DNA of 64,000 nt, taken from assembly GCA_947626585.1 (NCBI GenBank), contig CANQSU010000001.1, positions 11,768 through 75,767 on the forward strand, in the 5' to 3' direction. Under the pieces are notes generated by a model. That model saw only the letters and a list, made by a program, of their open reading frames with translations, made no database searches and was not told the DNA's origin. A program made the translations under genes and the position numbers. This stretch comes from an uncultured Oscillospiraceae bacterium (lineage in GTDB: Bacteria; Bacillota; Clostridia; Oscillospirales; Oscillospiraceae). Positions 9,976-49,358 of this stretch are shown here, one piece after another (positions within the stretch are counted from its first letter, which is position 1; every line of letters starts with the position of its first letter).

Positions 9976-10008
9976 TATGGCCGCGGCACTGGGCCGGGCC
10001 ACAGATGT

Positions 10009-21896: not shown

Positions 21897-22730
21897 TCAG
21901 GTCCTCGCGCGGGCCTCGAACTCCTCGTAGGTGTACGGTCCCTTGAGGACCTGCTGGTCGCGGCAGAATTTGCAGGAGCGCCTGCCGCAGCGGTGCGGGG
22001 CCTGGCGCACCTGGGCCATGGGCCGGGCGGTGAGGGACAGCTCGACGAACTCCAGGGCCTCGTTCAGCATCTCATCGGGGATCGTGACGACGCCGAAGTC
22101 GACGGGGTCCTCCTTGGTGATGTAGGCGATGTTGAACGGCAGGACGAGGCCGGTGTTCTGGCGGACGATCTCCCGGTAGATGGCGCCCTGGATGTCGTAG
22201 CCGTAGTTTTCGACAAACGTGACGCGTCGCTTCAGGAACTCGTTGAACTCCTCCTGGGCGGATTTTACGTACTTGAGGTCCGTGATCTGCACGCCGGGCT
22301 GGTAGTCGTCCATCTTGATCTTGAACGGGTGGCCGGCGATCTCGCCGGTCATGACGGCCTGGTGCTGCCCGGAGAGATAGGACATGAACACCGGGTCGCG
22401 CTTGGCGCGGGCGATGGCCTTGTCCGCGTCCTTGACGAACTGGTAGAAGCCCTTGCCGGATTTGAGCTTCAGGTCGGACTCGTTCTCCTCGACGAACTTC
22501 TTGAACGCGTCGTCGCTTTCGAACGCGGCGTCGACGTAGCCGCCGATGAGCAGGGCCTCGGTGCGCTCCTTCTCGCCGAGCAGGGCGGCCGCCTCGCAGG
22601 GATACGGCGCCGCCGGCATCCCGTAGACGGACTTGAACAGGGAATTGGACAGGTAGAGGACGTTTGCCTTTTCGGAGTAATAGTTCTCCGGCGTGAGCAC
22701 GAACGCCTCCTGGGCCTGTGTTTCGGGCAT
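21897..22730 (-). CDS. PD-(D/E)xK exonuclease (RecE/DUF3799-like)
   Basis: Track ORF 21897..22883 trimmed to MPETQ behind AAGGAGG. ITDLKYVKS and YDIQGAIYREI give the D..(D/E)xK ... QxxxY core. C-terminal Cys cluster HRCGRRSCKFC. Confidence 0.68.
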   Translation of the reverse strand: MPETQAQEAFVLTPENYYSEKANVLYLSNSLFKSVYGMPAAPYPCEAAALLGEKERTEALLIGGYVDAAFESDDAFKKFVEENESDLKLKSGKGFYQFVKDADKAIARAKRDPVFMSYLSGQHQAVMTGEIAGHPFKIKMDDYQPGVQITDLKYVKSAQEEFNEFLKRRVTFVENYGYDIQGAIYREIVRQNTGLVLPFNIAYITKEDPVDFGVVTIPDEMLNEALEFVELSLTARPMAQVRQAPHRCGRRSCKFCRDQQVLKGPYTYEEFEARART

Positions 22731-22746
22731 GGTGCTGCCTCCTTTC

Positions 22747-23430
22747 TCAGTCGTGGCTGCGCGGGACGCAGTCACGCGTTTCATAGTCGTAATGGTAATC
22801 GCCGGAATACGCGCATCCGTCGCAGTCGTTTGAAATGTCGCCGCCGAGCGGGCAGTCGTGGCCGTCGGTACCGTTGTACACATTCATGCCGACGATGGCG
22901 TCCGGGTACATGGTCTGGTCCTCCTTGGGAGGCTCGGGTTCCCGGTGGCCGCGCTTGTTGTCCATGACATAGTAGGCGTCGAGCCAGTTTTGGATATCAT
23001 AGTGCCCGTGGCAGAGCCCGCCCGTCGACAGGTTCATGGTCCACACGGTGTAGGTGCCGTCGTTTTTTACGGCAAGGACGGTCCAGAGGTACCAGTCGTC
23101 AGGGTGCTCGGACTGTTTCTCCACGCGGATGAGCGCGGGGCTGTACGCGGGGCTGACGGCGGCGGCCAGCTTCCTGGCCATGGACAGGGCGGACATCACC
23201 TGGGCCTCCCAGGGGAGCGCCGTAAAGGGTCCTTTTTCAAATCTTTCGGGTACGGGGCCGGGCAGGAGCTTCTGCAGGTCGTCCGGGTCAAGCCCGAGGG
23301 CTTCGAAGCGTTCCAGGCGCTTCAGGTACGTGACGAGCTCGCCCTCGGTGGTGCAGAAGTTGCCGTATCGGGACATGAGCTCGACATGGCCCGCGTTCAG
23401 CTCCCGGATCGCGGTCTTGAGAGGTACCAT
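22747..23430 (-). CDS. hypothetical protein with Cys/His-rich C-terminus
   Basis: Track ORF with a TAGGAGG RBS. No family recognised. Confidence 0.55.
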   Translation of the reverse strand: MVPLKTAIRELNAGHVELMSRYGNFCTTEGELVTYLKRLERFEALGLDPDDLQKLLPGPVPERFEKGPFTALPWEAQVMSALSMARKLAAAVSPAYSPALIRVEKQSEHPDDWYLWTVLAVKNDGTYTVWTMNLSTGGLCHGHYDIQNWLDAYYVMDNKRGHREPEPPKEDQTMYPDAIVGMNVYNGTDGHDCPLGGDISNDCDGCAYSGDYHYDYETRDCVPRSHD

Positions 23431-23498: not shown

Positions 23499-24503
23499 TC
23501 AGGGCTGGGACGCGCGGTAGGCCTCGAAGTCCTTGAGCAGCTTCTCGCGGGTGCAGAACACGCACTCGGTGAACCGGGCACGGGTCAGCGCCACATAGGC
23601 GATCCGCTTGTTCTCATCGGACGAGGAGTAGGTGTTGCGTCCCGCCTCGGTGTTGATGAAGCAGGCGACATGGTCGTACTCCAGGCCCTTGACGCCGTGC
23701 ACGGTGCAGACCACGATGTCTGCGGACTGCTCCTTGAGCTTGGCGTTCTTGGCGTCCATGACCCGCTGGAGCAGGGTGTTCTTCTCGGTCTGCATGTCCA
23801 GCAGGGACAGCTGGAGCCGGCGGATTTCCTGGTCGCGCTTGTTGGGGTCGTTGAGGGCCGCCACGATCTTCGGGCCGTCGGCCATCTGCTCGGCCAGCCA
23901 GTCCAGGGTGATCTTGTTCACCGTCGGGCCGTTCTGGTTGTACCGGTTGCCGCCGCGGGCCGCAGCATTGATGCGGATGTTCTCGTCATGGACGGCGCGC
24001 TCGAACTCGCCCCAGTCCTTCACGGGGTTCGGGAGGAACTTGGGCAGGTTCTGGCCGATGGCAGACAGGATCACGATGTCGTTCCGGCGCTGGGACGTGA
24101 TGTTCTGGACGTTGTACTGGGACCCGTAGCGGGTGTGCAGGTAGTCGTAGAGCTTCAGGACGTCCTGCCCGGAGCGGGCGATGACGGCGATGCTCTGGCC
24201 GTGGCCGAGGCGGAGCTCCAGCCAGTCATCCAGGATCTTCATCGTGTCGGGATCCGTGACTTTGTCGTAGGTGTTCATGGTCACGGTGGCGTCCACCGCC
24301 TGCTTGGTGATCTGCATGACCTGGTTGGCCCGCAGGGTGGTCTTATGGGTGGACATGGTGCTGGACATCAGGTTCGCCACGTCCAGGATGATCTGGGTGG
24401 AACGGTGGTTGATGCTGAGGTCGAAGGTGTTGAACAGCTTGGTCAGGTTATTCAGGATGCGGGGGTCCGCGTCCCGGAATTCATACAACGTCTGGGCACA
24501 ATC
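23499..24503 (-). CDS. UvrD/PcrA-like SF1 helicase, exon 2
   Basis: In-frame extension of track ORF 23499..24488 to the predicted 3' splice site. Remainder of motif III DCAQTLYEFRDADP, motif IV INHRST, VCTVHGVKGLEYDHV, AYVALTRAR. Confidence 0.8.
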   Translation of the reverse strand, partial: DCAQTLYEFRDADPRILNNLTKLFNTFDLSINHRSTQIILDVANLMSSTMSTHKTTLRANQVMQITKQAVDATVTMNTYDKVTDPDTMKILDDWLELRLGHGQSIAVIARSGQDVLKLYDYLHTRYGSQYNVQNITSQRRNDIVILSAIGQNLPKFLPNPVKDWGEFERAVHDENIRINAAARGGNRYNQNGPTVNKITLDWLAEQMADGPKIVAALNDPNKRDQEIRRLQLSLLDMQTEKNTLLQRVMDAKNAKLKEQSADIVVCTVHGVKGLEYDHVACFINTEAGRNTYSSSDENKRIAYVALTRARFTECVFCTREKLLKDFEAYRASQP

Positions 24504-25210
24504 CGTTTTGACGCTTGTCTGGAGAAGAACTGTATGAATTTCTCATGTTTTGTATCGAGATAAACAGAAGCGTTTTTGTACAGGTAATCGTACAGGAGTT
24601 TGATGTCAGCTTTTTTACCGTACCGGAGAGATGACGTTTTGGGCGACTTTTTGTACCCTTTCATCGCCACGGTTGGCGTCGTTCCAGCTTCATGTGACAA
24701 CAGGTCTTTGAATTCCCGCATGAGTTTTTTGTCGCCAGTGAGCGACCATTCCTGACGCTGGATGTCGGATCTGGCTGTTTTCTGGACATATACGGACAGG
24801 CACCCGTCTCCGTCAAAATACCCTCTCACAAAGTGGTTCATCAGGTTTTTTCGGATTTTCGGAATGTGTGTTCGTATGCTTTTTGGCCCATATCCGAGTT
24901 TTTGCAGCGCTTCGCATAATGGACGGCAGTTGATGTCCAACTGGGCGACCGTGTGCCCGCTTTCATGGTACACTGGAACGATTTCATTGTCGGCAGATAT
25001 GGCTTCGCGAAACCGTTCGAGATGTTCGCGCTCATCCCATTTTTGGGTGACGCGAATGCGGTTCGGTCCGCTGGCACGTTTTGCCGTTTTGCTGATACTG
25101 CCGTCGGCCCAGAGGAACCCAAGCCAATAGGCTTTTTCCTGTGTGTCGATCTTGTCAAAGTAGTGCTCGTTGATGCTGTGTGTTCTGTTTATCTGCGTTG
25201 AGGTTTGCAT
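24452..25210 (-). CDS. LAGLIDADG homing endonuclease (intron-encoded)
   Basis: Track ORF 24452..25288 trimmed to MQTSTQ behind GGAGGAAAG. Two LAGLIDADG motifs, YWLGFLWADGSI and FVRGYFDGDGCL. The last ~17 codons overrun the predicted 3' splice site in another frame. Confidence 0.88.
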   Translation of the reverse strand: MQTSTQINRTHSINEHYFDKIDTQEKAYWLGFLWADGSISKTAKRASGPNRIRVTQKWDEREHLERFREAISADNEIVPVYHESGHTVAQLDINCRPLCEALQKLGYGPKSIRTHIPKIRKNLMNHFVRGYFDGDGCLSVYVQKTARSDIQRQEWSLTGDKKLMREFKDLLSHEAGTTPTVAMKGYKKSPKTSSLRYGKKADIKLLYDYLYKNASVYLDTKHEKFIQFFSRQASKRIVPRRCMNSGTRTPAS

Positions 25211-25676
25211 GACTTTCCTCCGTTCTCCATGTTGCTGACTATACCATCTTGTATGTCTTATTTTACCGAAAAATATCGGTTTTGTCAAGACCTACAAGCC
25301 CTTCGTTTTGCTTTGACAGGCTGACCCAGGCCTAATCTCAGCCTGGTGCTGACCCGATCATGCTTTCGGGCGCTACTCTACTTGCTTCGCGGCGGATTTT
25401 CATCCGTCCTTATTTTCAATCCTGCCGGGTTTCCGGCTCTTATGGATTTATAGCTTTCGACAGTCGATGAACCTTGTTCCGTCGTCTTTACGTTACGGCA
25501 CCTGGCTGCGTTTTCGTGATTGCCGCCGCTTTTTCCGGGCTTTTACCGTCCCCATGGCGTTATCCATGGTGCTGCCTGTTCTGTTTCCAGAACAGCGCGG
25601 TGCCGGGTGCGTTTTACATGCTCTCACATGTCGGTTTCCCGCAGTTAGTAGGGTTTAAGGTGGGCAATTATGCCTT
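24504..25676 (-). mobile_element. group I intron interrupting the UvrD-like helicase gene
   Basis: Helicase motif III is split between the two ORFs. The 5' exon end GUGGGU can pair with intron GCCCAC (25660-25665), giving a U-G pair at the splice site. The intron ends in G. About 400 nt of ORF-free sequence is rich in GAAA-capped hairpins. A homing endonuclease gene lies inside. Confidence 0.72.
25260..25288 (-). promoter_or_regulatory. promoter candidate inside the intron, upstream of the homing endonuclease ORF
   Basis: Minus strand reads TTGACA, a 17-nt spacer, then TAAAAT. Confidence 0.5.
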
Positions 25677-27320
25677 ACCCACGCAATAGATACTGATGTC
25701 GTTCAACATTGCCATTTTTAACATCGTCAGAAACTCCAAGCGGTTGGAGTCCTGGCTCTCGTCAATGACGATGTGCTCGATGTTGGGCTTCAGGACGGAC
25801 AGCTGGGTGTGGAACACGATGGGGTCCAGTTCCAGCGACGTGCAGTGCAGCATCTTCAGGATGCTCAGCAGGTTTGCCGCCTCAGGGTTGAGGCCGGTGT
25901 CCAGCATGTTGAGCAGCTGGGGCTGGCACGTATCGATGTTGTCGCAGTAGTTGACGAACTGCTGCAGGGCCTTGACGGTGCTGGTTTGCAGGATGTTCGC
26001 GTTCACCAGGTCGTCCATGCGGATCTTGAGCTTCTGCACAAAATCCGAATGGGCCACGATGTCCACGCGGGTGCCGCTGCCGTCGTCCAGGATCACATTG
26101 ACAAACGAATGGGTGAACTCGGCGATGGTGCTGGACTTGCAGTCCCGGAAGTTCTTTTTGATGTGCCCCGCCGCGGCCTTGGTGAAGCTCAGCACGAAGG
26201 TCTGCTTCATGTCGCAGCCGTTCTCCTCCATGAAGGCCAGACGGTGCATGATACAGGAGGACTTCCCGGTGCCGGCGCCGGCCGCCACGATGGTGATGCG
26301 GGAGGGCGATTCGATGGCCGCGATCTGCTCGGTGGTCAGGGTGATGGCCTTGGTGGTGTACTTTTTGCCCACGAGCTCCGGGATCTGGGCCGTCATGGCG
26401 CCCTGCATGTTGCTCAGGGTGTCGGCCAGGGACAGGGACATATTGGCATTCTTGAGCTGGGTGGCCTCGTCGCGGGTCCGGGCGTTGATGACGTCGATGA
26501 CGTCCGTCTGGTACAGGGCGAAGGGCAGGTTGACCAGGTTCAGGATCCGGTTGGCGTAGGCCAGCACCGGATAGCCGGCCGCGGACGCGGCCTGCAGGGC
26601 CTTCTTCAGGTCGCCCTGGGTCTTGATCAGCGCCAGTTCGGACATGATCAGGTCGTACATGCTGCGGGCGTTGTCCGCCGCCGCCAGGTTGGCGGAGTCG
26701 TCGGTCTTCACCGAGTAGCCGTTTTTGACCATGAAGGCGTTGATCTTGTTAAACGCGTTCGTGTACATGTCCAGGATCGGGTCCTTGGGACGCGGGCCGT
26801 TCACGTACAGGCCGTCGAACTTCTCGATCCAGCTGTTGGTGGGCATGCCCTCCTCGGCGACGATCAGGGTGTAATAGCCAAGGACGTAGTTGGTTGCGGC
26901 CTTGTAGACGTAGATCCTGTTCAGGAACAGGCGGGACCGGTAGGTCACGACCTGGCCGTCGGACGGGCGCTCGAACGTGGCAAAATGGTCCGTCATGGCG
27001 CAGAGCGGGGCAGGGACGCCGTTCTGGGCCGTCGCGTAGCCGGAGCAGAGCGAGATGTCCTGCCAGAGGGTGGTGTAGTTCCTGAGGTCGTCATGGACGT
27101 GGTGGGCGCGGTTCTCGCACTCGTACCGGTCGGCCATCAGGATGGAAACGGCGTTCTGGGACACGACGTCGCTGCCCCCGGCGAGGAGCGTCGAGCGCAA
27201 CAGCCCCTGGTTCACGCCGTTCCCGGTCAAAACAGAGTTATAGTCCTTGGGGCTGTACTGGGGCCCCGCGGCGGCCTGCCTGGCAACGGCAGTACCGGCA
27301 TCTTCCAAGATGATCGGCAT
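25677..27320 (-). CDS. UvrD/PcrA-like SF1 helicase, exon 1 (with a long N-terminal extension)
   Basis: Walker A AAGAGTGKSS and motif II VIDESQD. The track ORF 25668..27320 ends ...ISIYCVGKA*, reading 2 codons plus the stop into the intron. Confidence 0.8.
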
Positions 27321-27636: not shown

Positions 27637-28316
27637 CAGGGGAGCCTCCAATCAACGGGCGACACGCCCATCATGGCCAGCATCCGGTTGGCCTTGGAAA
27701 AGGGCTTCGAGCCGAAGAAACCCTTGTCGGCGGAGAACGGCGACGGATGCGGTGACGTGATCAGGATCTTGTTCCGCTTCGGGTCCTGGACCGGCAGGCC
27801 GGCCAGTGCGTCGCGGGCGCTGCGGCCCCAGGCGATGAACACCACGGGCTTTTCCAGGCTTGCCGCGACCTTGAAGATCTGGTGGGTGAACCTGTCCCAG
27901 CCCCAGTTTGCGTGCGAGTTGCTCTGCCCGCGCTCGACCGTGAGGGTCGTGTTCAGGAGCAGCACGCCCTGGCGCGCCCAGGGGAGTAGGGATGTGGTCG
28001 TGGGGTACGGGCAGCCGGTGTCGGAGACCAGCTCCTTGAAGATATTCTGGAGGCTGGGCGGGGCCGGCGTCCCGTTTGTGACCGAGAAGCAGAGGCCCTC
28101 GGCCTGCCCCGGGTTGATGTACGGGTCCTGGCCGACTAGGACGACTTTTAACTTTTTCACGGGCGTCTCGTCAAGGGCCCGGAAGATCTTGTCCTGGGGC
28201 GGGTAGATCGTGTGCCCCTGGTGGCGGAGCGATTCCGCCTTGCCTGTGAGGGCGATGGCCAGTTCCAGGGTATCCTTGTCGAGATACTCGAACCAGTTTT
28301 TCGGCATTGTTCTCAT
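27636..28316 (-). CDS. ung: uracil-DNA glycosylase, family 1
   Basis: VLVGQDPYINPGQAEGLCFS (GQDPYH-type motif), LLLNTTLTV and SPHPSPFSA (HPSPLS motif). Confidence 0.9.
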   Translation of the reverse strand: MRTMPKNWFEYLDKDTLELAIALTGKAESLRHQGHTIYPPQDKIFRALDETPVKKLKVVLVGQDPYINPGQAEGLCFSVTNGTPAPPSLQNIFKELVSDTGCPYPTTTSLLPWARQGVLLLNTTLTVERGQSNSHANWGWDRFTHQIFKVAASLEKPVVFIAWGRSARDALAGLPVQDPKRNKILITSPHPSPFSADKGFFGSKPFSKANRMLAMMGVSPVDWRLP

Positions 28317-28591
28317 CTCTTTTCTGTGTTTGTGATCGTTGTTTTGTTCCAGCGTTCGATGGCCTGCCTGTCGGCTTTTGAAACGGCGCTTTCCGGGTCC
28401 GTGCGGTCCAGGTCCGGGTAGCCGGGTTCAACCGTGACCGTAAAATTTACCTTTGGGCCGCGTGCGCAGCAGGAGCGGCAGCGGACTTGGGAAATGTAGT
28501 TCTGCTCTGTGCCACGCAGCCTGGTAGCGTGAGAGTCGACATATGTCTTGTCAGAGCCACAGAACCAGCATTCATGGATGCCGTTTTTCAC
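28313..28591 (-). CDS. Lar-family restriction-alleviation-like zinc-ribbon protein
   Basis: CWFCG ... CRSCCARGP ... QAIERWNK reproduces the Lar-family pattern (CxxC ... CxxC ... AIxxWN). Confidence 0.58.
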   Translation of the reverse strand: MKNGIHECWFCGSDKTYVDSHATRLRGTEQNYISQVRCRSCCARGPKVNFTVTVEPGYPDLDRTDPESAVSKADRQAIERWNKTTITNTEKR

Positions 28592-29181: not shown

Positions 29182-30864
29182 TCAGATCTTGGACAAAATC
29201 ACGGAACGCGCCACGGGCGCCATGTCGGCGGGGCTGGCGATGCGGAGCTTGTCCTCGTCAGGGATGCCGAGGTCGTCCGGGATGGACGCGTATTTCGAGT
29301 GCTCGGCCTTCATGGACGCCACCATGCCGCGGACCATGCGTTCCGCGCCGTCGACCATTTCGGATGCGGACAGGGCGCGGATGGAGATCTTCGTCTGGGA
29401 GACCGGGTCACGGCGTGCGGCGAAGCCGATGGAACGGGACTGGTCGGAATCCTCGGAAACACAGAAAACGATGCATTTGCCGATGTCCACGGTCCGGTTG
29501 TCGGCGTATTTGATCAGTCCCGTCCCCATGGCGGACTCGAAAAAGTCGCGGACGACCGGGTGGCCCTTGTCCATGTTGTCGAGGATGATGATCTTCCTGG
29601 GGTTGGATTCCACGATGTCGAAGGGCATCTCCTGGCGGGAGTCGGAGCCGACGTAACCCATGGGCGAGCCGATAATTCTGTTCAGGCTGGGGGCGTCGGA
29701 ATAGTCCGCCAGGTCCAGGTACACCGGCTGCTCGTCGATGAGGGCGGCAGCCTGCTGGACCAGGGTGGTGCGGCCGGACTTGGGGTCGCCTTTGATATCA
29801 ATGCGGAACGGCTTGCCGGTGGGGAACAGGGCGTCGAAACGGACGTAGTCGCTGACCGTCTCATAGAGGTGGTCGATCACGTCGTCCCGGAAAAAGATCT
29901 TATCCTTTACAGCGTCGAAATCCGCGGGGACCGTGAAGCCCTGGCCCTTATTGTAGTTCTCCACGTGGGCCGCGTTGATGACCAGGGGCGTCGACTGCAT
30001 GTGCTGCTTGAGGGCGTCGTCTGTGCAGGTCATGATGTTGGCGTTACGCTGCAGCAGGGTGCTGGCGCAGACCTGGTCCAACAGCGTGATGGCATTGTCG
30101 GGACGGTGGCAGGTGATGGTCTTGGACTTTTCCGCCGCCTGGACGACCTTCATGGCCAGTCCGTTGGCAAAGCCGACGCCGTAGTGGGACGCCAGGGCCG
30201 GCATGGTGACCGTTTCGATGATGTCACGGGTCTGGTCCATGGAGAGCTCGCAGACCTGGACCTTGTTGAACCTCCGGTTGAAGGCGGGGTCTTCTAATAA
30301 AGACTTGGACTCTTGCAGGGTCGTGGCGCCGATCATCTTGATGCCGCCGCGGGCCATGGCAGGCTTGAGCATCTGGGAGACGCTGTCGTAGCCATGGCCG
30401 CCGCAGAGCTGGTGGATCTCGTCGATGAACAGGATGACTTTGTTGGACTCGCAGTACTCGACCACGGAGCGGACCTTCTCTTCGAGCTGGCCGCGGAAGC
30501 TGGTGCCGGCCATGAGGCTGGACAGGGGCAGCTCGTAGACGGTATAGTCGTTGAGCATGGACGTGTACGGGCTTTTCATGGCAATGAGCCGGGCGATCTC
30601 CTCGACAATGGCGGTCTTACCGGTGCCGGGGGCGCCCACAAGGAGCGAGCAGGACTTTTTGGACATCATCAGCTGGGAGACGACCTGGAAAACCTCGTGG
30701 TCGCGGTGTTTGACGGGCATGGCCTTGGCAAACTTCTTGTTGTAGTCGATGAGGAGCTCGGTGACGCCGGAGGCGTCCTGGGCCGCCTGGGCAGGCGTTA
30801 CGGCACCCGGAGGCGGCATGGAACCGGGAGCCTGGTTCTGATTATTTCTGAAGTCGAAAGGCAT
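29182..30864 (-). CDS. Clp/Hsp100-family AAA+ ATPase (ClpA/ClpB/ClpC-like, second module degenerate)
   Basis: LLVGAPGTGKTAIVEEIA (Walker A), VILFIDEIHQL (Walker B) and IGATTLQESKSLLEDPAFNRRF (Clp D1 signature). The second half has GDPKSGRTT and IIILDNMDK. Confidence 0.85.
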   Translation of the reverse strand: MPFDFRNNQNQAPGSMPPPGAVTPAQAAQDASGVTELLIDYNKKFAKAMPVKHRDHEVFQVVSQLMMSKKSCSLLVGAPGTGKTAIVEEIARLIAMKSPYTSMLNDYTVYELPLSSLMAGTSFRGQLEEKVRSVVEYCESNKVILFIDEIHQLCGGHGYDSVSQMLKPAMARGGIKMIGATTLQESKSLLEDPAFNRRFNKVQVCELSMDQTRDIIETVTMPALASHYGVGFANGLAMKVVQAAEKSKTITCHRPDNAITLLDQVCASTLLQRNANIMTCTDDALKQHMQSTPLVINAAHVENYNKGQGFTVPADFDAVKDKIFFRDDVIDHLYETVSDYVRFDALFPTGKPFRIDIKGDPKSGRTTLVQQAAALIDEQPVYLDLADYSDAPSLNRIIGSPMGYVGSDSRQEMPFDIVESNPRKIIILDNMDKGHPVVRDFFESAMGTGLIKYADNRTVDIGKCIVFCVSEDSDQSRSIGFAARRDPVSQTKISIRALSASEMVDGAERMVRGMVASMKAEHSKYASIPDDLGIPDEDKLRIASPADMAPVARSVILSKI

Positions 30865-31049
30865 GGCAATATTCCTCCTATGAGGCCCGCATTGTCATAC
30901 GAGCCTGTGATTTTGTGCGGCGCGTTCGTGCATGACGCATGGTTTTACCTTGATTCATAGCGAAAATTCGGAAAGGGCGGAGAGAAAGAACAACATTGGG
31001 GAACTTGGACTGGGATCGAGGATTTCATGATTGGTGACCATCCCGGGTT

Positions 31050-32340
31050 CCAGCGACGGATTTGGGAAGCAGGTCCATCGATGCGGCCCGCGGAGCTTGA
31101 GTCCGGAGCTTGGTTTCGAACCTGTCGTCCTGAGGAGGATGATCTCGACATCAACGATGACACTGAAGAGAGGATCCTGGAACGAGTTCGACGCCAAAGG
31201 ACCCTGGACTGCTGTAGGCCTCATCGGACGACAGCTGTATCGCGAAGCCACCGCGTGGTTCTGATGATCATCAGGATCTTCGCAGCGCTACGCGTTCATC
31301 CAGGAGCCTGCCTGGTAAGCATGTCTCATGAGATCCGGATCCACAGCATCTGGCAGCCTGAGCTTCTCCAGGTAACCAGTGTCGTACGGCAGGGTACCCT
31401 GCCGGCATGATCATGATCATGATCGTCGACCAGCTGGCATCGTTGGAATCTCGATCGCGATGTCGACTGCAAGTCCCTTCAGTGCACTATACTCCTCAGC
31501 TCTGCTGGAGACGCGTCTTCTTGCAGGTACCTTAGGTATCCGAAGAGCAACTGGAGTGCGTGCCCGCACGGAATGCCGTCTTCATCACAGCGTTCGCCAG
31601 GCCGGCTTCCGCGGATCCACGCATTGCTGCACCCGGAGGTCGCTGACTGATCAGTCGGATTTAAGCCTGCCAGGCACGAGTACTGCAGACCGAGTCTGGC
31701 GAGCCCTCAGGTCACCGGTATCCTGCTGCCTTCAGCTCAGCTCACTCGGGGCCTTGAGCCACGAGACGTCTTCAACGTTGCCGACCACCGTCACTTCAGT
31801 GGGCACCTAGGTGCTTGACATGCATGTCATTTGGTTCGCAATAATCCATCCCAGGCGTTATTCGTACGTTGTTCGTAATAATTACGAACATGTTCGTCAC
31901 CCGGGTTGCCGGACGAGCATGCCTTCGCACTGCGGATCCGCACCAGCTGGTAATCCGTCCTTACGGCCGTGATCACAACCAGTGATCTCCGGGATATCCC
32001 GCGGCTGTCACACTCAGTGCCGCGCGCAGGTAGATCTGTGACTGGGTCCTTAGCGACCTGACCGGACGTCAGATTCCATGATCATGGATTCTTCGTCCAC
32101 ACCATGGTTTCGAGATGAGCTCGCCATCGGCGCCTTGAGGCACCAGTGGCCATACCTGTACAGGTCAGACGCCTACGTCCCCAGATCCACGTGACTATCT
32201 GTCACCCAGAGACCGTTTGGAGTCTAATTATCCCGAATCCTGAAGGGGAGGCTGGAATGCGCATCCCAGGTATCCGGATCCGGGCCTGACCCCCGTCTTA
32301 TTTCGCTTCCTTCCTCCGGTCCCGCAGGGATCCGGAGGAA
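31050..32340. other. ORF-poor tract densely packed with perfect spacer-less palindromes (10-19 bp)
   Basis: Direct reading finds at least 14 perfect palindromes of 10 bp or longer between 31261 and 32283 (listed in the findings), plus many 6-8 bp ones. The track has no minus-strand ORF of 60 aa or longer between 31252 and 32634. Confidence 0.8.
31861..31900. promoter_or_regulatory. operator-like cluster of GTTCGT half-sites
   Basis: TTCGTACGTTGTTCGTAATAATTACGAACATGTTCGTCAC contains four TTCGTA/GTTCGT-type half-sites, including the 19-bp dyad GTTCGTAAT-A-ATTACGAAC (31871-31889). Confidence 0.4.
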
Positions 32341-32606
32341 GACGCACGCCTGCGCCGCACTCCCTGCGCCGGGAATGCGGTGTTATCATTGTTTTTTTTT
32401 CCGGCAGTCCGGCCCTGTCTCGTGGCTATACTGCAGGGCAAGTACAACGGTAAACGCAAAGCGGAACGCGGCCGAGGTGGCGCTTTTCATCGCCAATCCC
32501 CAATGCCGGCCCGGAATTGGTCCATTCAATCGTTTTCCGAAGTTAACGCGTCCGCCCCCCTCTATCCTATGGGGCGGACGCGTGCGGCCGTCTTGCCGGT
32601 TTCTTT

Positions 32607-32628
32607 CCAGCCGAGACGCTGGTTTTTT
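32607..32628 (+). terminator. plus-strand rho-independent terminator facing the reverse transcriptase operon
   Basis: CCAGC-cgagac-GCTGG followed by TTTTTT on the plus strand. The minus-strand reading has no U-run after the stem. Confidence 0.5.
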
Positions 32629-32634
32629 ATGCCG

Positions 32635-33270
32635 TCAGTTCAGACCGGGAACGGCGTTCAGCCGCTGCGTGTACAGCGCATGGCAGAGCCGGAAGAGCCG
32701 GTCGTCCACGGTGTGGTCCATGTCGGCCACGACCTCCATGGCACATTTCTTGAGCAGCGAGAGGGACTGTTCCGGGGTGGAGCATTTCGGCATGAGGAAG
32801 CCCTCGTATTTGATCCCGTAGGACAGGGTCACGAAGGCGCCGGTGTTCATCCAGCAGGACTTGTAGGTGTCCGGGCAGGAATACCTGTACTTGGCCTCGA
32901 ACGCCTTCACGTCCCGGCGGACGTTCTCAAGGGTCGGCTTATTTGACTTCCGGGGCGACGCCCAGAGGGTGAAACGGGCGCATAGCCGGTCCGCGTCACG
33001 GGCCAGGACCTTCTCATCCACCCCGGTGCCGGACATGGACATGACGATCTCGTCGACCATGTCCGTGAAGGCACGCTTGGGCCAGAAGAGGGAGTTCTCG
33101 GCCACGTGGTTCAGGGCGTCGTTCAGGTACTGTTTGCGCGTGCTGGAAAACCAGTAACGGCAGTAGCAGTCCAGCGCGGCGTCCGGGTCCTTGTGCAGGG
33201 CCAGGTCCATGGAACGGATGAAGTTGTCCCGGGTGGCCCTGCCGTTCACTTGTTTCCCAAGGTATTTCAT
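32635..33270 (-). CDS. hypothetical protein co-transcribed with the reverse transcriptase
   Basis: Track ORF 32635..33327 trimmed to MKYLGKQ behind AAAGGAG. It starts 19 nt after the RT stop. No family recognised. Confidence 0.58.
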   Translation of the reverse strand: MKYLGKQVNGRATRDNFIRSMDLALHKDPDAALDCYCRYWFSSTRKQYLNDALNHVAENSLFWPKRAFTDMVDEIVMSMSGTGVDEKVLARDADRLCARFTLWASPRKSNKPTLENVRRDVKAFEAKYRYSCPDTYKSCWMNTGAFVTLSYGIKYEGFLMPKCSTPEQSLSLLKKCAMEVVADMDHTVDDRLFRLCHALYTQRLNAVPGLN

Positions 33271-33289: not shown

Positions 33290-34597
33290 CTACATGGCGT
33301 CCATGCCCATGGCACGGCTTCCGGCAAGCATCAGATTCGCATACGTGGTGTACGCCGCCGGCGCGTTCCGGTACAGGGACCTCATATAGGTAAGCGGCGT
33401 ATAGCCGTCGATGTGCGGGCGCTTTTTACGGTTTTCCGTGACGTTGCGGCCGCGCCCGCGCTGGATCACGCCGCCGTTCCCAGACTTGTTATATCCCAGG
33501 CCGCCCAGTTTCGTGCGGCCGGTGTCGCAGGCGCGCAGGCAGTCCAGGATGTAGGCATCCATCTGCTTCAGGTCCTGGACCGAAGTCAGGACCGGCAGGA
33601 TCCCTTCGGCGTAGCCGTAGCCGGATTCGCCCTTCTCGTAAAGCCACGAGGCGATCCGCGGCATGGCCTTTTCCGAGCCGGCGGGGTGCGCGGCGTCGAT
33701 GGTCCGGTCCCGGACGGCCTTCTGGAAGTTCCCGAGGCGTTTCTTTGACAGGGATATTTCCCCGTCACGCAGGGAAAAGCCGAGGAAGGTGAACCATTTG
33801 TCGTTGGTGAGCCGCTCGATCTTCTTCTGGTTCATGGACAGGCCCATGTCTTTCAGCATTTCAGAGCATGCCTCGAACGCGGCGTCGGCATGGGGTCCCA
33901 GGATCAGGATGTCGTCACTGTAGCGCCAGAAGCCAACGTCCAGCCTTGACATGGCGTCGTCCACCGGGTACAGGACGGAGTCCGCCAGGAAGGACGCCAC
34001 GGCACAGCCCTGGCGCAGGCTGGTGTACTTCTCGAACATGTGCCCGTCCAGCGCCTGGAGCCGGTCGTCGTGGTAATAAATATCTAACAGTGTCAGCAAT
34101 GCCGACGGGCCGAGGCGCGAGGCGACGGCTTCGAATACCTGTTCGATGTATTTCCGGTCGACCGTGTCGAAATACTTGGACAGGTCGATCTTCCAGCCGA
34201 TGTGGTCGAGACTTTGGCAGCTGGCCTTGATATATCTTGCCACTTCCCGGGCAACCTTGCCGCAGCCGACGCCTGATTTATAGGACATGCAGGACGGGTG
34301 GACCATGTCGGGACAGTAGCGGAACAGGGCCTCGTTGATCGCCGCGAACAGGATCCGGTCCTCGGCGGCGTTGACGTAGACGGTCCGCATGGTGCCGTCG
34401 TCCTTGGGGACCTGGGCCTCGTGGGGCGGCTTGATGGATTTCTTCCCGTCCTGGATCCTGGATTTCAGGGCGTCCCGATAATTCGGGTCGGTGAAGTCCT
34501 CCAAAATTTTTGTCTTGATGTGTTTTTCGGCGCCGCCGGCGATGGCTTTTTCCCAGATCGCATCATCGTCGAACAGCCTGTCAAGAAACGCGTCCAT
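33290..34597 (-). CDS. reverse transcriptase (RNA-directed DNA polymerase), class unassigned
   Basis: RT motifs VPKDDGTMRTVYV, AEDRILFAAI, KIDLSKYFDTVD, LRQGCAVASFLAD, RYSDDILILG, GLSMNQKKIE and FTFLGFSL. AAAGGAGG RBS. Confidence 0.88.
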   Translation of the reverse strand: MDAFLDRLFDDDAIWEKAIAGGAEKHIKTKILEDFTDPNYRDALKSRIQDGKKSIKPPHEAQVPKDDGTMRTVYVNAAEDRILFAAINEALFRYCPDMVHPSCMSYKSGVGCGKVAREVARYIKASCQSLDHIGWKIDLSKYFDTVDRKYIEQVFEAVASRLGPSALLTLLDIYYHDDRLQALDGHMFEKYTSLRQGCAVASFLADSVLYPVDDAMSRLDVGFWRYSDDILILGPHADAAFEACSEMLKDMGLSMNQKKIERLTNDKWFTFLGFSLRDGEISLSKKRLGNFQKAVRDRTIDAAHPAGSEKAMPRIASWLYEKGESGYGYAEGILPVLTSVQDLKQMDAYILDCLRACDTGRTKLGGLGYNKSGNGGVIQRGRGRNVTENRKKRPHIDGYTPLTYMRSLYRNAPAAYTTYANLMLAGSRAMGMDAM

Positions 34598-34614: not shown

Positions 34615-34848
34615 TTAAATTTTACGGATCTCGTCTATCCCGTACAGGATCTCCCGCAGGGCATTGTTGTTGAGCGATACGAAGACCGAACCGGTGTCGG
34701 CGACAAATTTCACGGTTCCACGGTCACCAGGCTTCAGGTCCGTGAGCGGGTCAGCCGTTGAGACCAGTTCGATACGGGTCCCGGGCGGGTATTCGGCACG
34801 GAGCCTGTCAACGGTTTCCCTGGTTGGATATACGCACTGGCCGCCCAT
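34615..34848 (-). CDS. DUF4314-like small protein
   Basis: Track ORF 34615..34995 trimmed to MGGQCVYPTRE. RLRAEYPPGTRIELVSTADP...LKPGDRGTVKFVADTGSVFVSLNN...LYGIDEIRKI matches my recollection of the DUF4314 pattern. Confidence 0.6.
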   Translation of the reverse strand: MGGQCVYPTRETVDRLRAEYPPGTRIELVSTADPLTDLKPGDRGTVKFVADTGSVFVSLNNNALREILYGIDEIRKI

Positions 34849-34849
34849 G

Positions 34850-35245
34850 TCACGAAAGCCCCCATGTTTTCCTGAAATCCGCGACGTCCTCCGGGGCGAA
34901 CTCCGCGAGCCGGTCCAGGTCGAACCGGAAGACCGGGTACATGCCCATGCCGGAGAACGCGGTCTTTCCCGTGTCCTCGGCCAGGCGGTTGTCACGGATG
35001 AACTTCAGGACTTGGCGACGCATGTCGCCCGTAATGGCAGACTCGCCGGGCTCCATGGGGAATTCCGGGATGTTGACCGTCAGGTCGGCAACGGAGCCGG
35101 GACAGCCGTCCCCGTCATCACCGATGAGCCCGACGAACAGGCGGCCGTTGTCGCTGTATTTGGCGACCTCGATGCCGACCTTTTCGATGCGGCCGTTATA
35201 TCCGAGGTCGAAATCAAGGTTGTATTCCTGCTTTTCTTCTGCCAT
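34850..35245 (-). CDS. DUF4313-like protein
   Basis: GIEVAKYSDNGRLFVGLIGDDG...ADLTVNIPE...VLKFIRDNRLAEDTGKTAFSGMGMYPVFRF matches my recollection of the DUF4313 pattern seen in Firmicutes conjugative elements. Confidence 0.55.
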   Translation of the reverse strand: MAEEKQEYNLDFDLGYNGRIEKVGIEVAKYSDNGRLFVGLIGDDGDGCPGSVADLTVNIPEFPMEPGESAITGDMRRQVLKFIRDNRLAEDTGKTAFSGMGMYPVFRFDLDRLAEFAPEDVADFRKTWGLS

Positions 35246-42648: not shown

Positions 42649-42716
42649 ATGTCTTTTGTATAAGATTTTGCGGTGCGCGCCCGGACGTCCGGACACACTC
42701 CGCGGTTTTCTTTCAG

Positions 42717-42748
42717 GGCTGGGCATGCGCGCCAGCGCGTGCCCAGCC
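42717..42748. repeat. hairpin copy A with conserved 14-nt loop
   Basis: GGCTGGGCA-TGCGCGCCAGCGCG-TGCCCAGCC. Confidence 0.65.
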
Positions 42749-42890
42749 GCCGCCCAAAGGGCCAAACCGTAGGCACGTTTGCGCCCGCAAGCCGCCGTGG
42801 GACGCACCCCAACGGTGCCGCGGCTGGCAGCCGGACCGTGCCTGTTGGCTTTCCGTCCGGCCGTGCGCGGTGGTCCCGCGGTTATTTTTC

Positions 42891-42926
42891 GAGCCCCGGC
42901 ATGCGCGCCAGCGTGTGCCGGGGCTC
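42891..42926. repeat. hairpin copy B with conserved 14-nt loop
   Basis: GAGCCCCGGCA-TGCGCGCCAGCGTG-TGCCGGGGCTC. The loop and left flank match copy A. The stem sequence differs but stays complementary. Confidence 0.65.
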
Positions 42927-43004
42927 CTTCCGGCAATAAAAAGTCCGGCGGGGGCAGCCCAAAAACAGGCCTCCGCATAGGCAAACTCCCCCGGTGGCCG
43001 TTTT

Positions 43005-43470
43005 GAGAACGTTACATTTTTTCGATGTTGCAAGTTGTTCGTTTTTGTGTCAAAATCGCAAAAAGTGCAAGAATCATTACAGTTTTTCTTGCGGCCGAGT
43101 CGAAAATGGTACTGCATTTTTTTCGTGTTTTTCGAAAGCCTGAAAATGGAAACGTTACAAGAAAGTGTAGAAATTTCTACAGTTTTTGGCATCCATGTTG
43201 CTAACTCCGTTACAGAGCGTTACACAAAAAATCGCAAAAACTGCAAAAATCTTTGCATAAATTTTTTTGTAACGTTTGTAACGTTAAAATTAGTATTATA
43301 TACGCGCGTGAGAAAACGCCATACTAAGGGTTTGAAAAATGAACGTTACAAACGTTACAAAAAAATTTCTGCTATAATTCTTACATTTTTTCGAAAATTT
43401 TTGTAACAGCGTGTAACGTGAGAACGTTACAAACTTGAAAAGTGCAAGAATTGTTACATTTTCTTGTAAC
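43005..43470. repeat. AT-rich iteron field (AACGTTAC / GTTACA repeats); probable replication origin or centromere
   Basis: At least 13 exact GTTACA/TGTAAC hexamers, mostly as (G/A)AACGTTACA and several in tandem (43268-43282, 43344-43359, 43402-43431). Also longer direct repeats AAAAGTGCAAGAAT..TTACA (43061 and 43438) and AAAATCGCAAAAA(G/C)TGCAA (43052 and 43227), and the palindrome GTAGAAATTTCTAC. Confidence 0.8.
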
Positions 43471-47997: not shown

Positions 47998-49254
47998 ATG
48001 ATCAATGCCGGCATTGACGTCGGGAACGGGTATGTGAAGGCCCTGGTCAAGAACCCCGACATGGACAAGAAGGCGCAGGCGGTCGACATCCCCAGCGCCA
48101 CGTCCACGATCTCTTCCCGGGAGGCCAAGATCGAGGCCAAGGACGAGATCAAGATCAAGAACTTTTTCAACGACATCTACAACCTGATGGAGGTGTCCTT
48201 CGACTCCCCGATGATCACGGAGACGGACCACGCCTACATCGGCCTGCGGGCCGTGCGGTCCGCCAACCCGACGGAGGAGTTCAACCTGCGGGAGGGGCAC
48301 CGTTCCAAGTCCGAGACGGAGCTGTCCGCGAAGCTGATGCTGTCTGTGTTGGCCGGCAAGGCCCTGTCGGACTACTGGGCCAAGAACAAGAAGCTGCCCG
48401 GGGAGGGTGAGACGATCCCCGCCAAGGTGCGGCTGGCGTTCTCCCTGCCGATCTCCGAGTACGTCGAGAAGCGCGACACCGCCATCCAGAACTACACGTC
48501 TTCGCCGCACATCGTGCACATCCACAATTTCGACCGGGTGGTCACGGTAAAAGTTGACGTCGTGTCAGCCCGTGTGATGCCGGAGGGCGCCAGCGCCCAG
48601 TTCGCCATCGCCGCGAAGGGCGAGAAGTTCATCGAGGCGATGATCAAGGACATGTACAGCAATGGGCTGTCGCTGCCGGAGGGGATCACCGCCGCCGATA
48701 TCGCAAGTGCCCAGGGCATCATCGGGATCGACATCGGCGAGGGCACGGTGAACTTCCCGATCTACCAGGACCTGATGTTCAACGCCGACACGTCCCAGAC
48801 GCTGAATAAGGGCTACGGGCACGTCCTGGACGCCGCCGTGGCCAATTTGGAGTCGAAAGGTCAGCCGTATCATAACAGGAAGCAGCTGGCGGACGCCCTG
48901 GAGAACGCCAAGGTGAAGCCCCTGCTGCGCGCCCGTGCGAGGCCCGCGTTCGAGGCGGTCAACGACGAGATCGGGATCTTCGTCAAGGACGTGGCCAAGA
49001 AGTGCCGCGACGTGCTGAACATCGCAGGCGGCCTGGCCGAGGTCATCTACGTGTACGGCGGCGGGGCGACGCCTGTAAAGGACAAGCTGTACCCGGCCCT
49101 GATCGACGCGGTGAAGACCGTGTTCGGCGAGGACGGCGCGAGCTTCCCGATCCTGTACCTGGATTCCCGTTACTCCAGGTGGCTGAACCGCGACGGCCTG
49201 TACCTGCTGTGCGACGATGGGCCGAGGAGCGCGGAAGACCTGACCAACGTGTGA
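47998..49254 (+). CDS. ParM/Alp-family actin-like segregation ATPase
   Basis: Actin-fold motifs GIDVGNGYVK (phosphate 1), GIDIGEGTVNF (phosphate 2) and VYVYGGGA (adenosine). Confidence 0.85.
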   Translation: MINAGIDVGNGYVKALVKNPDMDKKAQAVDIPSATSTISSREAKIEAKDEIKIKNFFNDIYNLMEVSFDSPMITETDHAYIGLRAVRSANPTEEFNLREGHRSKSETELSAKLMLSVLAGKALSDYWAKNKKLPGEGETIPAKVRLAFSLPISEYVEKRDTAIQNYTSSPHIVHIHNFDRVVTVKVDVVSARVMPEGASAQFAIAAKGEKFIEAMIKDMYSNGLSLPEGITAADIASAQGIIGIDIGEGTVNFPIYQDLMFNADTSQTLNKGYGHVLDAAVANLESKGQPYHNRKQLADALENAKVKPLLRARARPAFEAVNDEIGIFVKDVAKKCRDVLNIAGGLAEVIYVYGGGATPVKDKLYPALIDAVKTVFGEDGASFPILYLDSRYSRWLNRDGLYLLCDDGPRSAEDLTNV

Positions 49255-49261
49255 TTTGGCG

Positions 49262-49290
49262 TTGACAGGACGCGCCTGACGGGCTATAAT
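49262..49290 (+). promoter_or_regulatory. perfect consensus promoter for the adhesin gene
   Basis: TTGACA (49262-49267), a 17-nt spacer, then TATAAT (49285-49290). Confidence 0.7.
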
Positions 49291-49358
49291 CAGGTTACGG
49301 CCGCTTGCGGCCAGCAGATATAACCAAAAAATCTTTAAGAGCAAAGGAGATTACCAGT

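Follow-up and report, generated by a model that had tools for sequence, protein, structure and literature searches.

Why a stretch of DNA that lacks credible genes should be crowded with perfect palindromes, and why it should lie beside a reverse transcriptase (RT), are the questions raised by positions 30865-32634 of the window analyzed here, a 64,000-nt stretch of contig CANQSU010000001.1 from an uncultured Oscillospiraceae bacterium. This 1770-nt gap forms a long noncoding intergenic region adjoining the RT. As the first-pass annotation of the window had recorded, its minus strand contains no open reading frame (ORF) of 60 aa or longer between 31252 and 32634, and two plus-strand ORFs (31027-31410 and 31379-31810) have a GC content at third codon positions (GC3) of 0.59, compared with 0.8-0.9 in real genes; the gap has no credible coding potential. 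On the evidence described below, the palindromic tract is very probably an insert in a noncoding RNA (ncRNA) unit of the UG27 type, and the gap as a whole would represent the ncRNA module of a UG27 RT system residing on a large, phage-like element from gut Firmicutes. The full chain of proposals, in which the insert is also reverse transcribed and its self-complementarity is maintained by selection, is held tentatively, with slightly more doubt than confidence.

The 14 perfect palindromes listed in the first-pass annotation were all found in place; one of them, GTTCGTAATAATTACGAAC, is a palindrome of odd length with a central A, and TCTCATGAGA (31324), ACGAACATGTTCGT (31884), ACCAGCTGGT (31942), and CATGATCATGATCATG (31406) are additional. 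Perfect, even-length palindromes were counted and compared with Markov models of orders 1-5, trained on either the tract or the whole window, with 1000 simulations per model. Between 31000 and 32300, palindromes of at least 6, 8, 10, 12, and 14 bp number 68, 36, 19, 12, and 7, against Markov expectations of 21-31, 5.5-8.4, 1.5-2.4, 0.3-0.7, and 0.1-0.2 and simulation maxima of 50, 21, 8, 4, and 3, respectively. When counts were made in sliding windows against the Markov background, the top 1-kb windows of the 64 kb overlapped the tract in every length class, and the density outside the gap is 4.4, 1.6, and 0.32 per kb at ≥8, 10, and 12 bp; the earlier impression that no other part of the window, coding regions included, is comparably dense is borne out. 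The extent of the feature required adjustment, in that the palindromic part is narrower than the interval 30865-32634 originally reported (approximately 31000-32290), both edges of the gap being conserved and non-palindromic.

The palindromes are diverse. Hexamer palindromes in the tract represent 41 of the 64 possible types, where other 1.3-kb windows hold 15.7 on average and 23 at most. By our own estimate, a uniform random draw of 68 sites would yield about 42 distinct types; the tract is therefore a broad sample of palindromes rather than a one-of-each set, and a "polylinker" design, with each site present once, was rejected because 41 distinct hexamers among 68 sites is the level expected from random sampling. 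Palindrome lengths follow an approximately geometric distribution; each further base pair multiplies the count by about 0.55, where chance would give 0.25. GATC, described at the first pass as locally dense, occurs 15.4 times per kb in the tract and 6.5 times per kb elsewhere. Palindrome centers in the tract show no 150-nt periodicity.

The adjoining RT was confirmed (Pfam RVT_1, E = 3e-18) and could be assigned to a family. The PADLOC model RT_UG27 matches with E = 8.5e-138 over profile positions 2-421 of a 420-position profile (figures as reported), the next best model being UG26 at 5e-33; UG17 and Drt9 follow UG26, and a generic RT model is also among the best. The active-site segment R225-Y-S-D-D229 is invariant in the RT family alignment. 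UG27 RTs are phage-borne class 2 UG/Abi RTs accompanied by two accessory genes and a putative ncRNA, and they have been suggested to be anti-defense systems (Mestre et al. 2022, PMC9226505). A September 2026 preprint ("Minerva") describes UG27 systems as comprising the RT, an sORF, a bORF, and a long intergenic array of sequence-diverse ncRNA units of ~150 nt, the central hairpins of which are copied into 50-100-nt hairpin single-stranded DNA (ssDNA) in canonical systems; synthesis of complementary DNA (cDNA) begins there at the AUC of AUCNNNNNNNUANAG, i.e., AUCN7UANAG, and both sORF and bORF are required in the two canonical systems tested (bioRxiv 10.64898/2026.09.22.753630). Its authors catalogued more than 14,000 UG27 loci, stated that the biological role is unknown, and reported that some clades carry structured units outside their models (bioRxiv 10.64898/2026.09.22.753630).

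The window locus does not have the canonical array. In a positive control, Bacteroidales loci show AUCNNNNNNNUANAG about every 150-190 nt directly after the RT, the Alistipes putredinis locus L063 among them, whose UG27 system is one of the five tested in the preprint (bioRxiv 10.64898/2026.09.22.753630); across 39 canonical loci with arrays, there are 4-8 regularly spaced copies. Neither the window nor any member of its clade (the syntenic loci described below) contains a copy of AUCNNNNNNNUANAG, and an array of ~135-167-nt units is not present. Since the variable hairpins are beyond what MAFFT can align, the covariance model built for the canonical unit contained no base pairs and was used purely as a sequence profile. 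This profile recovers held-out arrays, including divergent Firmicutes ones, at up to 52.8 bits; against the clade it returned nothing, and no score in the window exceeded 3.7 bits even when filters were off.

Relatives of the locus were retrieved via the flanking RT and the flanking ATPase, which yielded ten further syntenic loci (L001, L002, L071/72, L073-75, L076, L077/78, L079-81, L165, and L166; L079/80 are partial). Their RTs are 49-91% identical to that of the window, and their GC content ranges from 40 to 64%. The common gene order runs from a LysM gene on the opposite strand through a MoxR AAA gene, a 527-aa VWA-like protein, and, in some loci, DUF4313/DUF4314 to the RT, and continues with an ORF of ~210 aa, a gene-free gap of ~1.75-2.1 kb, a ClpB-like AAA+ ATPase, and a UvrD helicase. 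The gap of L081 is longer (~2.25 kb) and might hold extra structure. Hexamer palindromes occur at 33-46 per kb in the syntenic gaps compared with 13-18 per kb in their own flanks, and each gap contains 34-44 distinct types. The question posed at the first pass, whether palindromes rather than primary sequence are conserved, can be answered in the affirmative: the enrichment is kept in ten relatives while the sequence turns over. No relative carries an intact gene in the homologous region.

The manner of this turnover is apparent at different distances. Between L001 and the window, the flanks share 86-90% nucleotide identity, and the blastn alignment is interrupted exactly over 31003-32230; a finer alignment shows collinear, heavily diverged tracts with conserved non-palindromic blocks at both edges and a core identity of ~0.5. 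For the closest pair, the window and L071, identity is 0.80-0.86 over the whole gap and 0.69-0.83 at 4-fold sites. "Hypermutation" of the tract was rejected, since the divergence of the whole gap in this pair is approximately that of 4-fold sites. Among more distant relatives, palindromes have turned over almost completely by position, and the enrichment persists where 4-fold sites are saturated, across the full range of GC content; the length of the palindromic core is kept at ~1.2-1.4 kb across the clade. A few differences preserve symmetry, among them symmetric double substitutions such as CAGGGTACCCTG / CAAGGTACCTTG and, separately, the replacement of GAC-ATGCAT-GTC by GAC-TCCGGA-GTC. Wherever a relative allows both to be seen, the tract accompanies this RT branch. 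Distant ATPase homologues (≤37% identity, many on IMG/VR contigs) are accompanied by neither the tract nor the RT, and a scan of viral contigs using the ATPase as the only query protein gave no match. A blastn search of the tract against plasmid and phage collections gave no match.

One link between the tract and UG27 is the structure predicted to enclose it. Three long-range helices (L1a, L1b, and L2; see the table) pair the two conserved edges of the gap with each other, spanning ~1.4 kb, and L2 encloses 30966-32300, exactly the palindromic tract. These helices were tested for covariation in an alignment of eight clade members that had been built without reference to structure, with 500 shuffles. 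Scaffold cells are paired in 96.7% of cases compared with 84.6 +/- 1.2% in the shuffles, none of which reached the observed value (0/500), and in 33-51% when the register is slid. Pairs changed on both sides number 19 of 38, against 8.9 +/- 1.7 in the shuffles, with L1a contributing five of its six pairs. G·U pairs in the scaffold fit only the RT-sense strand, and RNAalifold recovers the same long-range helices de novo. The adjacent hairpin H1 (32358-32377), whose 3' strand overlaps L1a at 32358-32360, is 94.6% paired with compensatory changes in four of seven pairs. A pseudoknot between the 5' CGCAU and the 3' AUGCG of the motif was dropped, as the eight-member alignment, judged by eye, shows no covariation.

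The second line of evidence is a sequence motif. In the loop between L2 and L1b, the RT-sense strand reads AUGAAUCAAGGUAAAACCAUGCGUCAU (clade consensus GAAWCAA-RG-UAAAG-nn-AUGYGnCA), which resembles the canonical cDNA-start region AUCAAn5UAAAGnnAUGUGCCA; it contains an AUC at 30952-30954 and UAAAACCAUGCGUCA at 30933-30947. A related motif, UAUAGCCACGAGACA, lies at 32416-32430 just before the 3' strand of a shorter closing helix (32586-32597 with 32403-32414) that surrounds an inner hairpin (~32548-32585). In seven clade members, RNAalifold predicts both this closing helix (columns 79-90 with 296-307) and the hairpin (96-105 with 116-123), each with compensatory changes. The copy at 32416-32430 on the minus strand is an exact match to TANAGNNAYGNGNCA (UANAGnnAYGnGnCA) and has homologous counterparts in L073-75, L076, and L081. 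In canonical arrays, TANAGNNAYGNGNCA is present in 1-3 copies, all in RT sense, and canonical units possess a covarying basal helix adjoining the motif, as verified in this analysis; the background in 83 unrelated phage loci (L082-L164, an estimated ~1.1 Mb) is two hits, which makes the motif almost exclusive to UG27 arrays. When the canonical profile was run with filters off over 79 kb of clade loci, the best match and two other top matches fell on the 3' block, at model positions 115-151.

Clade members have two copies of the motif, the first in the 5' block and the second beyond the tract (for example, 4966-5049 and 6911-6933 in L081, and 9251-9265 and 10822-10836 in L073), which led us to a two-unit model. 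The locus would be an array of two units, the first of canonical size (195 nt) and the second extending over 30915-32360 (1446 nt), in which the 1335-nt insert stands where canonical units have a central hairpin of 50-100 nt; each unit is predicted to end with UANAGnnAYGnGnCA just ahead of the 3' strand of its closing helix. This putative RNA-level UG27 scaffold around the tract draws directly on evidence in the sequence. With the UG27 identity of the RT and the co-occurrence of the two, the bracketing helices and motif make the tract most likely an RT-associated ncRNA or cDNA template, a link to the RT that the first-pass annotation had already drawn. A one-mismatch copy of the motif, TCAAGAAATGTGCCA, also occurs at 32739-32753 on the minus strand, inside the 211-aa ORF, and may be due to chance (3.65 such copies are expected per window, and eight were found). 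In the leader of the ATPase gene, AUAGGAGG followed by ATG is conserved, and the arms of a small hairpin vary in a compensatory manner, as judged by eye in the 3'-block alignment.

Table. Layout of the locus in window coordinates, listed in the direction of the minus strand
Feature	Position	Strand	Basis
UG27-class reverse transcriptase, 435 aa, YSDD active site	33290..34597	-	Pfam RVT_1, PADLOC RT_UG27
211-aa orphan ORF directly after RT, candidate short bORF homologue	32635..33270	-	clade conservation, weak profile-profile match
Unit 1, 195 nt, structured, sequence-conserved	32403-32597	-	RNAalifold, exact TANAGNNAYGNGNCA match
A-rich linker between units 1 and 2, A9 run	32361..32402	-	alignments; includes 5' strand and loop of H1
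5' scaffold of unit 2: 5' strands of L1a, L1b, and L2 with hairpin H2	32301..32360	-	covariation, RNAalifold
Helix L1a	5' strand 32352-32360; 3' strand 30915-30923	-	
Helix L1b	5' strand 32342-32348; 3' strand 30927-30933	-	
Hairpin H2, between L1b and L2	32310-32341	-	
Helix L2	5' strand 32301-32307; 3' strand 30959-30965	-	
Palindrome-dense insert, 1335 nt, fast-evolving, predicted reverse-transcription template, inside L2	30966..32300	-	palindrome statistics, conservation in relatives
3' scaffold of unit 2: 3' strands of L2, L1b, and L1a with motif loop	30915..30965	-	covariation, motif
ATPase gene leader: small GC hairpin and AGGAGG ribosome-binding site	30865..30914	-	3'-block alignment
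ClpB/ClpA-like double AAA+ ATPase, 560 aa, downstream of tract	29182..30864	-	Pfam AAA and AAA_2; phrog_4871 E = 9e-65

Accessory proteins were considered next to the RNA. The 211-aa ORF is conserved in every clade member and has no Pfam, PHROG, or PADLOC match. In hhalign comparisons, its family aligns with the C-terminal part of bORF (E = 2.7e-4 to 5.6e-4, with a reported match probability of 30-42%), and one protein, L167_209, forms a bridge between the two, being a canonical bORF (E = 2e-29) and also matching the profile of the 211-aa family (E = 1.5e-4). An exhaustive hmmsearch with the latter profile returned clade members only and no canonical bORF. On these comparisons, the 211-aa ORF is a candidate bORF relative. 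When the sORF profile was enriched with a 328-aa protein from L003, it gave a single match, the 259-aa ORF at 14029-14808 on the minus strand, which has a DUF488-N3a domain (E = 7e-6) and lies 17 kb away; this match probably reflects an extra domain shared with one seed rather than a true sORF. With no sORF found near the RT and a bORF likeness that is only weak, the locus would thus be a reduced or remodeled UG27 variant.

Two more distant loci bear on how such a variant may be related to canonical systems. In L167, which has an RT 45% identical to that of the window and a different backbone, genes for canonical sORF (E = 1e-35) and bORF (E = 2e-29) accompany a single 737-nt unit (8258-8994) that opens with the canonical 5' AGCACA and closes with UAAAGAAAUGUGCCA. 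The unit is weakly enriched in palindromes (19 versus 12.4 hexamers, P = 0.07). By its sequence features, L167 is an intermediate, combining canonical sORF and bORF with one long unit bounded by canonical end motifs. In L003, whose RT is 44% identical and which has another backbone, a spacer of ~600 nt (region 9400-10000) separates the RT from a canonical sORF-family gene and is palindrome-rich, with 35 hexamer palindromes per kb compared with about 12.

The kind of symmetry present in the insert constrains what its product could be. Perfect inverted repeats with 5-nt arms were compared between seven pooled tracts (9.6 kb) and 95 kb of flanks. Their excess in the tracts is 6.4-fold for spacer 0 and 1.9-fold for spacer 1, and they are unenriched at spacers of 2-14 nt (0.5-1.8-fold). 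The first mismatches flanking palindromes are G·T in 134 and A·C in 111 cases (p = 0.16), so that no G·U strand signal is seen inside the tract. Folding z-scores of 150-nt tract windows range from -0.4 to -1.0, equal to those of the coding flanks; the tract shows no excess local folding. The symmetry is therefore strictly Watson-Crick and dyadic and does not correspond to hairpins or a stable RNA fold. The "many short hairpins" envisaged in the first-pass annotation have to be given up on this account, since loops of 2-14 nt are not enriched and local folding is no better than in coding sequence. Its "large structured ncRNA" holds for the flanking scaffold and fails for the tract itself, and has no Rfam match. 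One giant hairpin was rejected, as only local palindromes occur, together with a possible sub-domain of ~370 nt. Within the insert, two adjoining inverted-repeat segments at 31130-31171 could pair with 31474-31499 (CTGAGGAGGAT...CACTGAAGAGA with TCCCTTCAGTG...ATACTCCTCAG) and so close a sub-domain of ~300 nt.

In the ten pooled tracts, hexamer palindromes number 657 against 233 expected from their own order-1 models, a 2.8-fold excess that is broad and extends to nearly all types. GGATCC (6.7-fold), TCCGGA (6.5-fold), and TGATCA (5.1-fold) are the most favored, along with GGTACC; GATC- and CCGG-centered palindromes are favored in all ten tracts, and ATCCGGA/TCCGGAT is present in 9-10 of the ten. 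Sites containing CTAG stay depleted.

Based on these data, a simple model would suggest that the gap is transcribed on the minus strand, in the sense of the RT, and folds into the scaffold described above. If the locus works as canonical UG27 systems do, the RT, probably assisted by the 211-aa protein, would begin DNA synthesis near the AUC within the 3' loop of unit 2 and copy the insert into multi-copy ssDNA of plus-strand sequence. An RNase H1 encoded at 5680-6315 on the minus strand (Cauli_VI and RNase_H, with an N-terminal hybrid-binding domain) could free the cDNA from the RNA; this enzyme may have such a role in processing RNA:cDNA hybrids or may simply belong to the replication module. 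Identical copies of the product could then anneal to one another, or a copy could fold back on itself, to give many short perfect duplexes, which may be the counterpart of the diverse hairpin cDNAs made from canonical arrays. Selection would maintain the density of spacer-less, Watson-Crick self-complementary segments, whatever their sequence; the persistence of the enrichment where 4-fold sites are saturated, the modestly higher conservation of palindromic positions in the closest pair, and the symmetric double substitutions speak for such selection.

Several observations weigh against this model. The insert folds no better than coding DNA, and its product would be unlike the stable hairpin cDNAs of canonical systems; Watson-Crick symmetry without a wobble signal fits a cis-acting element in duplex DNA equally well; and clustered substitutions that copy palindrome arms could point to a mutational process rather than to selection. 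In the loop of unit 2, the spacing from AUC to UANAG is 2-3 nt shorter than in canonical units, the AUC is not found in every member, and the motif has one mismatch in the window, being exact at the homologous place in L001, L073-75, and L079-81. Of the accessory proteins, both of which are required in the two canonical systems tested, the sORF is not matched by a profile search near the RT, and the case for bORF homology of the 211-aa ORF depends on weak profile-profile scores, the exhaustive hidden Markov model search having missed canonical bORFs.

Alternatively, the palindromes may have no function and may be a by-product of mutation, written by fold-back or template switching of the RT or a DNA polymerase, possibly with write-back of cDNA into its own template, and held in a steady state of birth and decay. 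This explanation, which we regard as unlikely, draws on the pattern of change between the window and L071. Mismatch runs of at least 4 nt number 11 against 1.2 expected, and the 34 indels are not multiples of 3; in the RT gene, which serves as a control, changes are not clustered (two runs of at least 3 nt against 2.4 expected). Half of the change clusters of at least 3 nt overlap a palindrome, and in nine of those ten the palindrome exists in one sequence only, so that clusters make or destroy palindromes, some by copying the adjoining arm (GAAGGCAGCAG to GAAGGCCTTCC). The near-geometric length distribution and the nearly complete positional turnover in distant relatives are also as this explanation would have it, and besides the RT, a RecE-like exonuclease (DUF3799, 21897-22883) is encoded nearby. 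However, palindromic positions in the closest pair are more, not less, conserved than others (identity 0.83 versus 0.75 and 0.78 versus 0.72), and palindromes remain unchanged roughly two times as often as control segments. Canonical UG27 arrays are RT templates too, yet have no spacer-0 excess, and write-back activity is not known for UG27. The length of the tract has been kept despite the deletion bias expected for useless DNA, and some clusters near indels may be alignment artifacts.

A different view of the product deserves mention, although we think it decidedly unlikely. The RT may make a long or heterogeneous multi-palindromic ssDNA that self-pairs or self-primes into branched or duplex DNA, a sequence-independent "instant dsDNA" (double-stranded DNA) or nucleic-acid network; every segment is self-complementary whatever its sequence, and identical copies would therefore pair. 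The palindromes might then be kept in part by RT fold-back errors recombined into the template. If true, such a long self-pairing ssDNA would be a new class of output for prokaryotic RTs.

The symmetry of the tract, being strictly Watson-Crick, spacer-less, and strand-neutral, could equally belong to a cis-acting element in duplex DNA, such as a region for packaging or replication, a set of sites bound by symmetric dimeric proteins, or a read-out of methylation; the preference for GATC- and CCGG-centered palindromes in all ten tracts and the lack of excess RNA folding are in keeping with this. Phage P1 pac offers a parallel, with Dam-regulated TGATCA clusters in which a single hexamer is repeated within about 160 bp. 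The window tract resembles it in having TGATCA/GATC-type palindromes clustered in a noncoding region of phage type and differs in comprising nearly all palindrome types over 1.3 kb, with quick turnover and with RNA-type helices and UG27 motifs around it. We consider a cis-acting element distinctly improbable. Sites are not positionally conserved past the closest relatives, and almost every palindrome type is enriched, whereas arrays of the operator, pac, or ori kind are built on one motif. In addition, covarying helices of RNA type, with G·U pairs, enclose the tract, which follows the RT lineage even onto a second backbone and lies away from the strand switch and skew change near 41 kb. The origin, cruciform, or regulator-site array put forward at the first pass is disfavored on two of these grounds, the G·U-containing covariation around the tract and the fast turnover of sites.

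The leading proposal of the first-pass annotation was an anti-restriction decoy, in which the tract or RT-made DNA copies of it would titrate host restriction enzymes or methyltransferases. Restriction pressure does exist, as the rest of the genome avoids restriction-type sites: outside 30865-32634, hexamer palindromes have an observed/expected ratio of 0.84, and CTAG occurs twice in 62.7 kb. Most classical 6-bp sites are present in the tract (41/64), and UG27 RTs produce ssDNA in abundance, an anti-defense role having been proposed for them. The element also encodes ClpP (7371-8177) along with the Clp-type ATPase, and a Lar-like ORF lies 2.3 kb from the tract (28313-28591 on the minus strand, 92 aa). 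The match to Lar, which the first-pass annotation had named as a neighbor, spans nearly the whole profile and is sub-threshold only (E = 0.0015, 19.2 bits against a cut-off of 28.6). The decoy is nevertheless very improbable. Hexamers that the genome avoids are absent or rare in the tract too (outside 30865-32634, AAGCTT 0 versus 11.4 expected, CTCGAG 0 versus 10.2, TTTAAA 0 versus 5.0, CTATAG 0 versus 3.7, and ATCGAT 3 versus 12.3), and avoidance shows no anticorrelation with abundance in the tract (rho = +0.18 in the window and +0.14 in the pooled clade, neither significant); hexamer usage in the tract instead follows flank frequency (rho = 0.64). The enrichment grows with palindrome length up to 18 bp, beyond the size of recognition sites, and a fold-back hairpin would leave the central 4 nt, the core of a site, unpaired. 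As genomic dsDNA, the tract holds only ~6% of the hexamer palindromes of the window and so cannot be a sink in cis. A literature search for palindrome-rich decoys in phages found only papers about palindrome avoidance.

A decayed gene, or a neutral spacer with palindromes due to chance or composition, would account for the scarcity of ORFs and for divergence at about the synonymous rate or faster, but is scarcely credible given an enrichment far outside every Markov background that recurs in ten relatives of 40-64% GC, conserved length, indels that are not multiples of 3, and the absence of an intact gene from all relatives.

The reading of the tract as the insert of a UG27-type unit can be placed among known systems. 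The locus shares with canonical UG27 systems a YSDD-containing UG27 RT, a gut phage-like carrier, a long intergenic noncoding region beside the RT, units in which a covarying basal helix forms the closing stem, with UANAGnnAYGnGnCA before its 3' strand, and a sequence-diverse and fast-evolving central part; a candidate bORF relative may be a further common point. It differs from them in having two units, the second with a 1.3-kb insert, in place of the ~150-nt unit array, in having no detected sORF, and in the shorter AUC-to-UANAG spacing; its cDNA output is a prediction. The insert and the canonical arrays also differ in symmetry and folding, the former with a 6.4-fold excess of spacer-0 palindromes and no excess folding, the latter with 0.9-fold (34 kb) and excess folding (z ~ -2). 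The system is of a known kind, a UG27 RT with an ncRNA, but lacks the defining array, and a giant unit with a palindrome-saturated insert is an undescribed architecture.

Retrons likewise pair an RT with its own structured ncRNA bounded by closing inverted repeats and produce multi-copy, self-complementary ssDNA, with RNase H taking part in maturation. The window locus has in common with them an RT beside a putative structured ncRNA and a predicted template bracketed by closing repeats; it differs in its UG27 RT, in a template of ~1.3 kb compared with less than 200 nt, and in having no known retron-type effector. No branching-G architecture was identified, no retron model is among the 25 best PADLOC models shown, and Rfam gave no retron match. 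DRT2/UG2 and DRT9/UG28 are class 2 UG RTs that also copy an adjoining ncRNA into DNA products; their products are long or concatemeric cDNAs copied from small scaffolded templates, and their role is host defense, whereas the window system resides on a mobile element and its predicted template is long and palindrome-dense. There is no sign of a diversity-generating retroelement: the RT belongs to another type, and no template/variable repeat pair was found, the tract containing no copy of any direct repeat. The comparison with Rfam proposed at the first pass (ROOL, GOLLD, group I/II introns, and others) gave no hits at gathering thresholds in the whole window, and a permissive search of 30600-32900 gave chance-level matches only (E ≥ 0.5). 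No tRNA or tmRNA was found, no direct-repeat family has a copy in the tract, and there are no relevant tandem repeats.

The remainder of the window bears in part on the proposed phage-like nature of the element. By PHROG assignment, it encodes phage-type replication genes (DNA polymerase, RNase H, primase, and a Clp-type ATPase), and contigs on which close relatives of this RT and of the 211-aa ORF occur extend to 200-330 kb; no capsid or terminase gene was seen within the 64 kb. The DUF4314 (34615-34995) and DUF4313 (34850-35245) genes named in the first-pass annotation are present. The UvrD-like helicase is split on the minus strand into an N-terminal part (25668-27320) and a UvrD_C part (23499-24488), between which lies a 278-aa endonuclease ORF (24452-25288, phrog_4645) with a GC3 of 0.55 and a local dip in GC. 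In relatives, UvrD is a single ORF of 880-912 aa, except that L077 is also split, with a LAGLIDADG gene nearby; the split at 23499-27320 looks like an insertion of a homing endonuclease or of an intron or intein. An island of low GC (0.48 for the bin at 43-44 kb) includes an ORF with a GC3 of 0.33 (43035-43406) and the 16-bp palindrome TGTAGAAATTTCTACA at 43166, and is adjoined by 44-nt direct repeats at 42700 and 42876 (82% identical, 42700-42919) near the orientation switch at ~41 kb; the region 42700-43406 may be regulatory or an origin. On the plus strand, 47998-55076 encodes an actin-like protein (ALP/ParM-type) and, after it, a 1923-aa protein containing three T-Q ester-bond domains, a cargo unusual for a phage that suggests plasmid-like maintenance or adhesion functions.

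More generally, UG27 is among the most abundant RT families in gut phages, and the locus described here indicates that a UG27 "unit" can be about 10 times longer than present covariance models allow, so that surveys based on those models will miss such loci. We found no precedent described in phage genomes, which normally avoid palindromes, for a conserved kilobase-scale tract selected for generic palindromicity. The clade amounts to a natural experiment in which the scaffold has been kept and the template exchanged for 1.3 kb of diverse dyad symmetry, which suggests that UG27 systems need self-complementarity of the product rather than a particular sequence.

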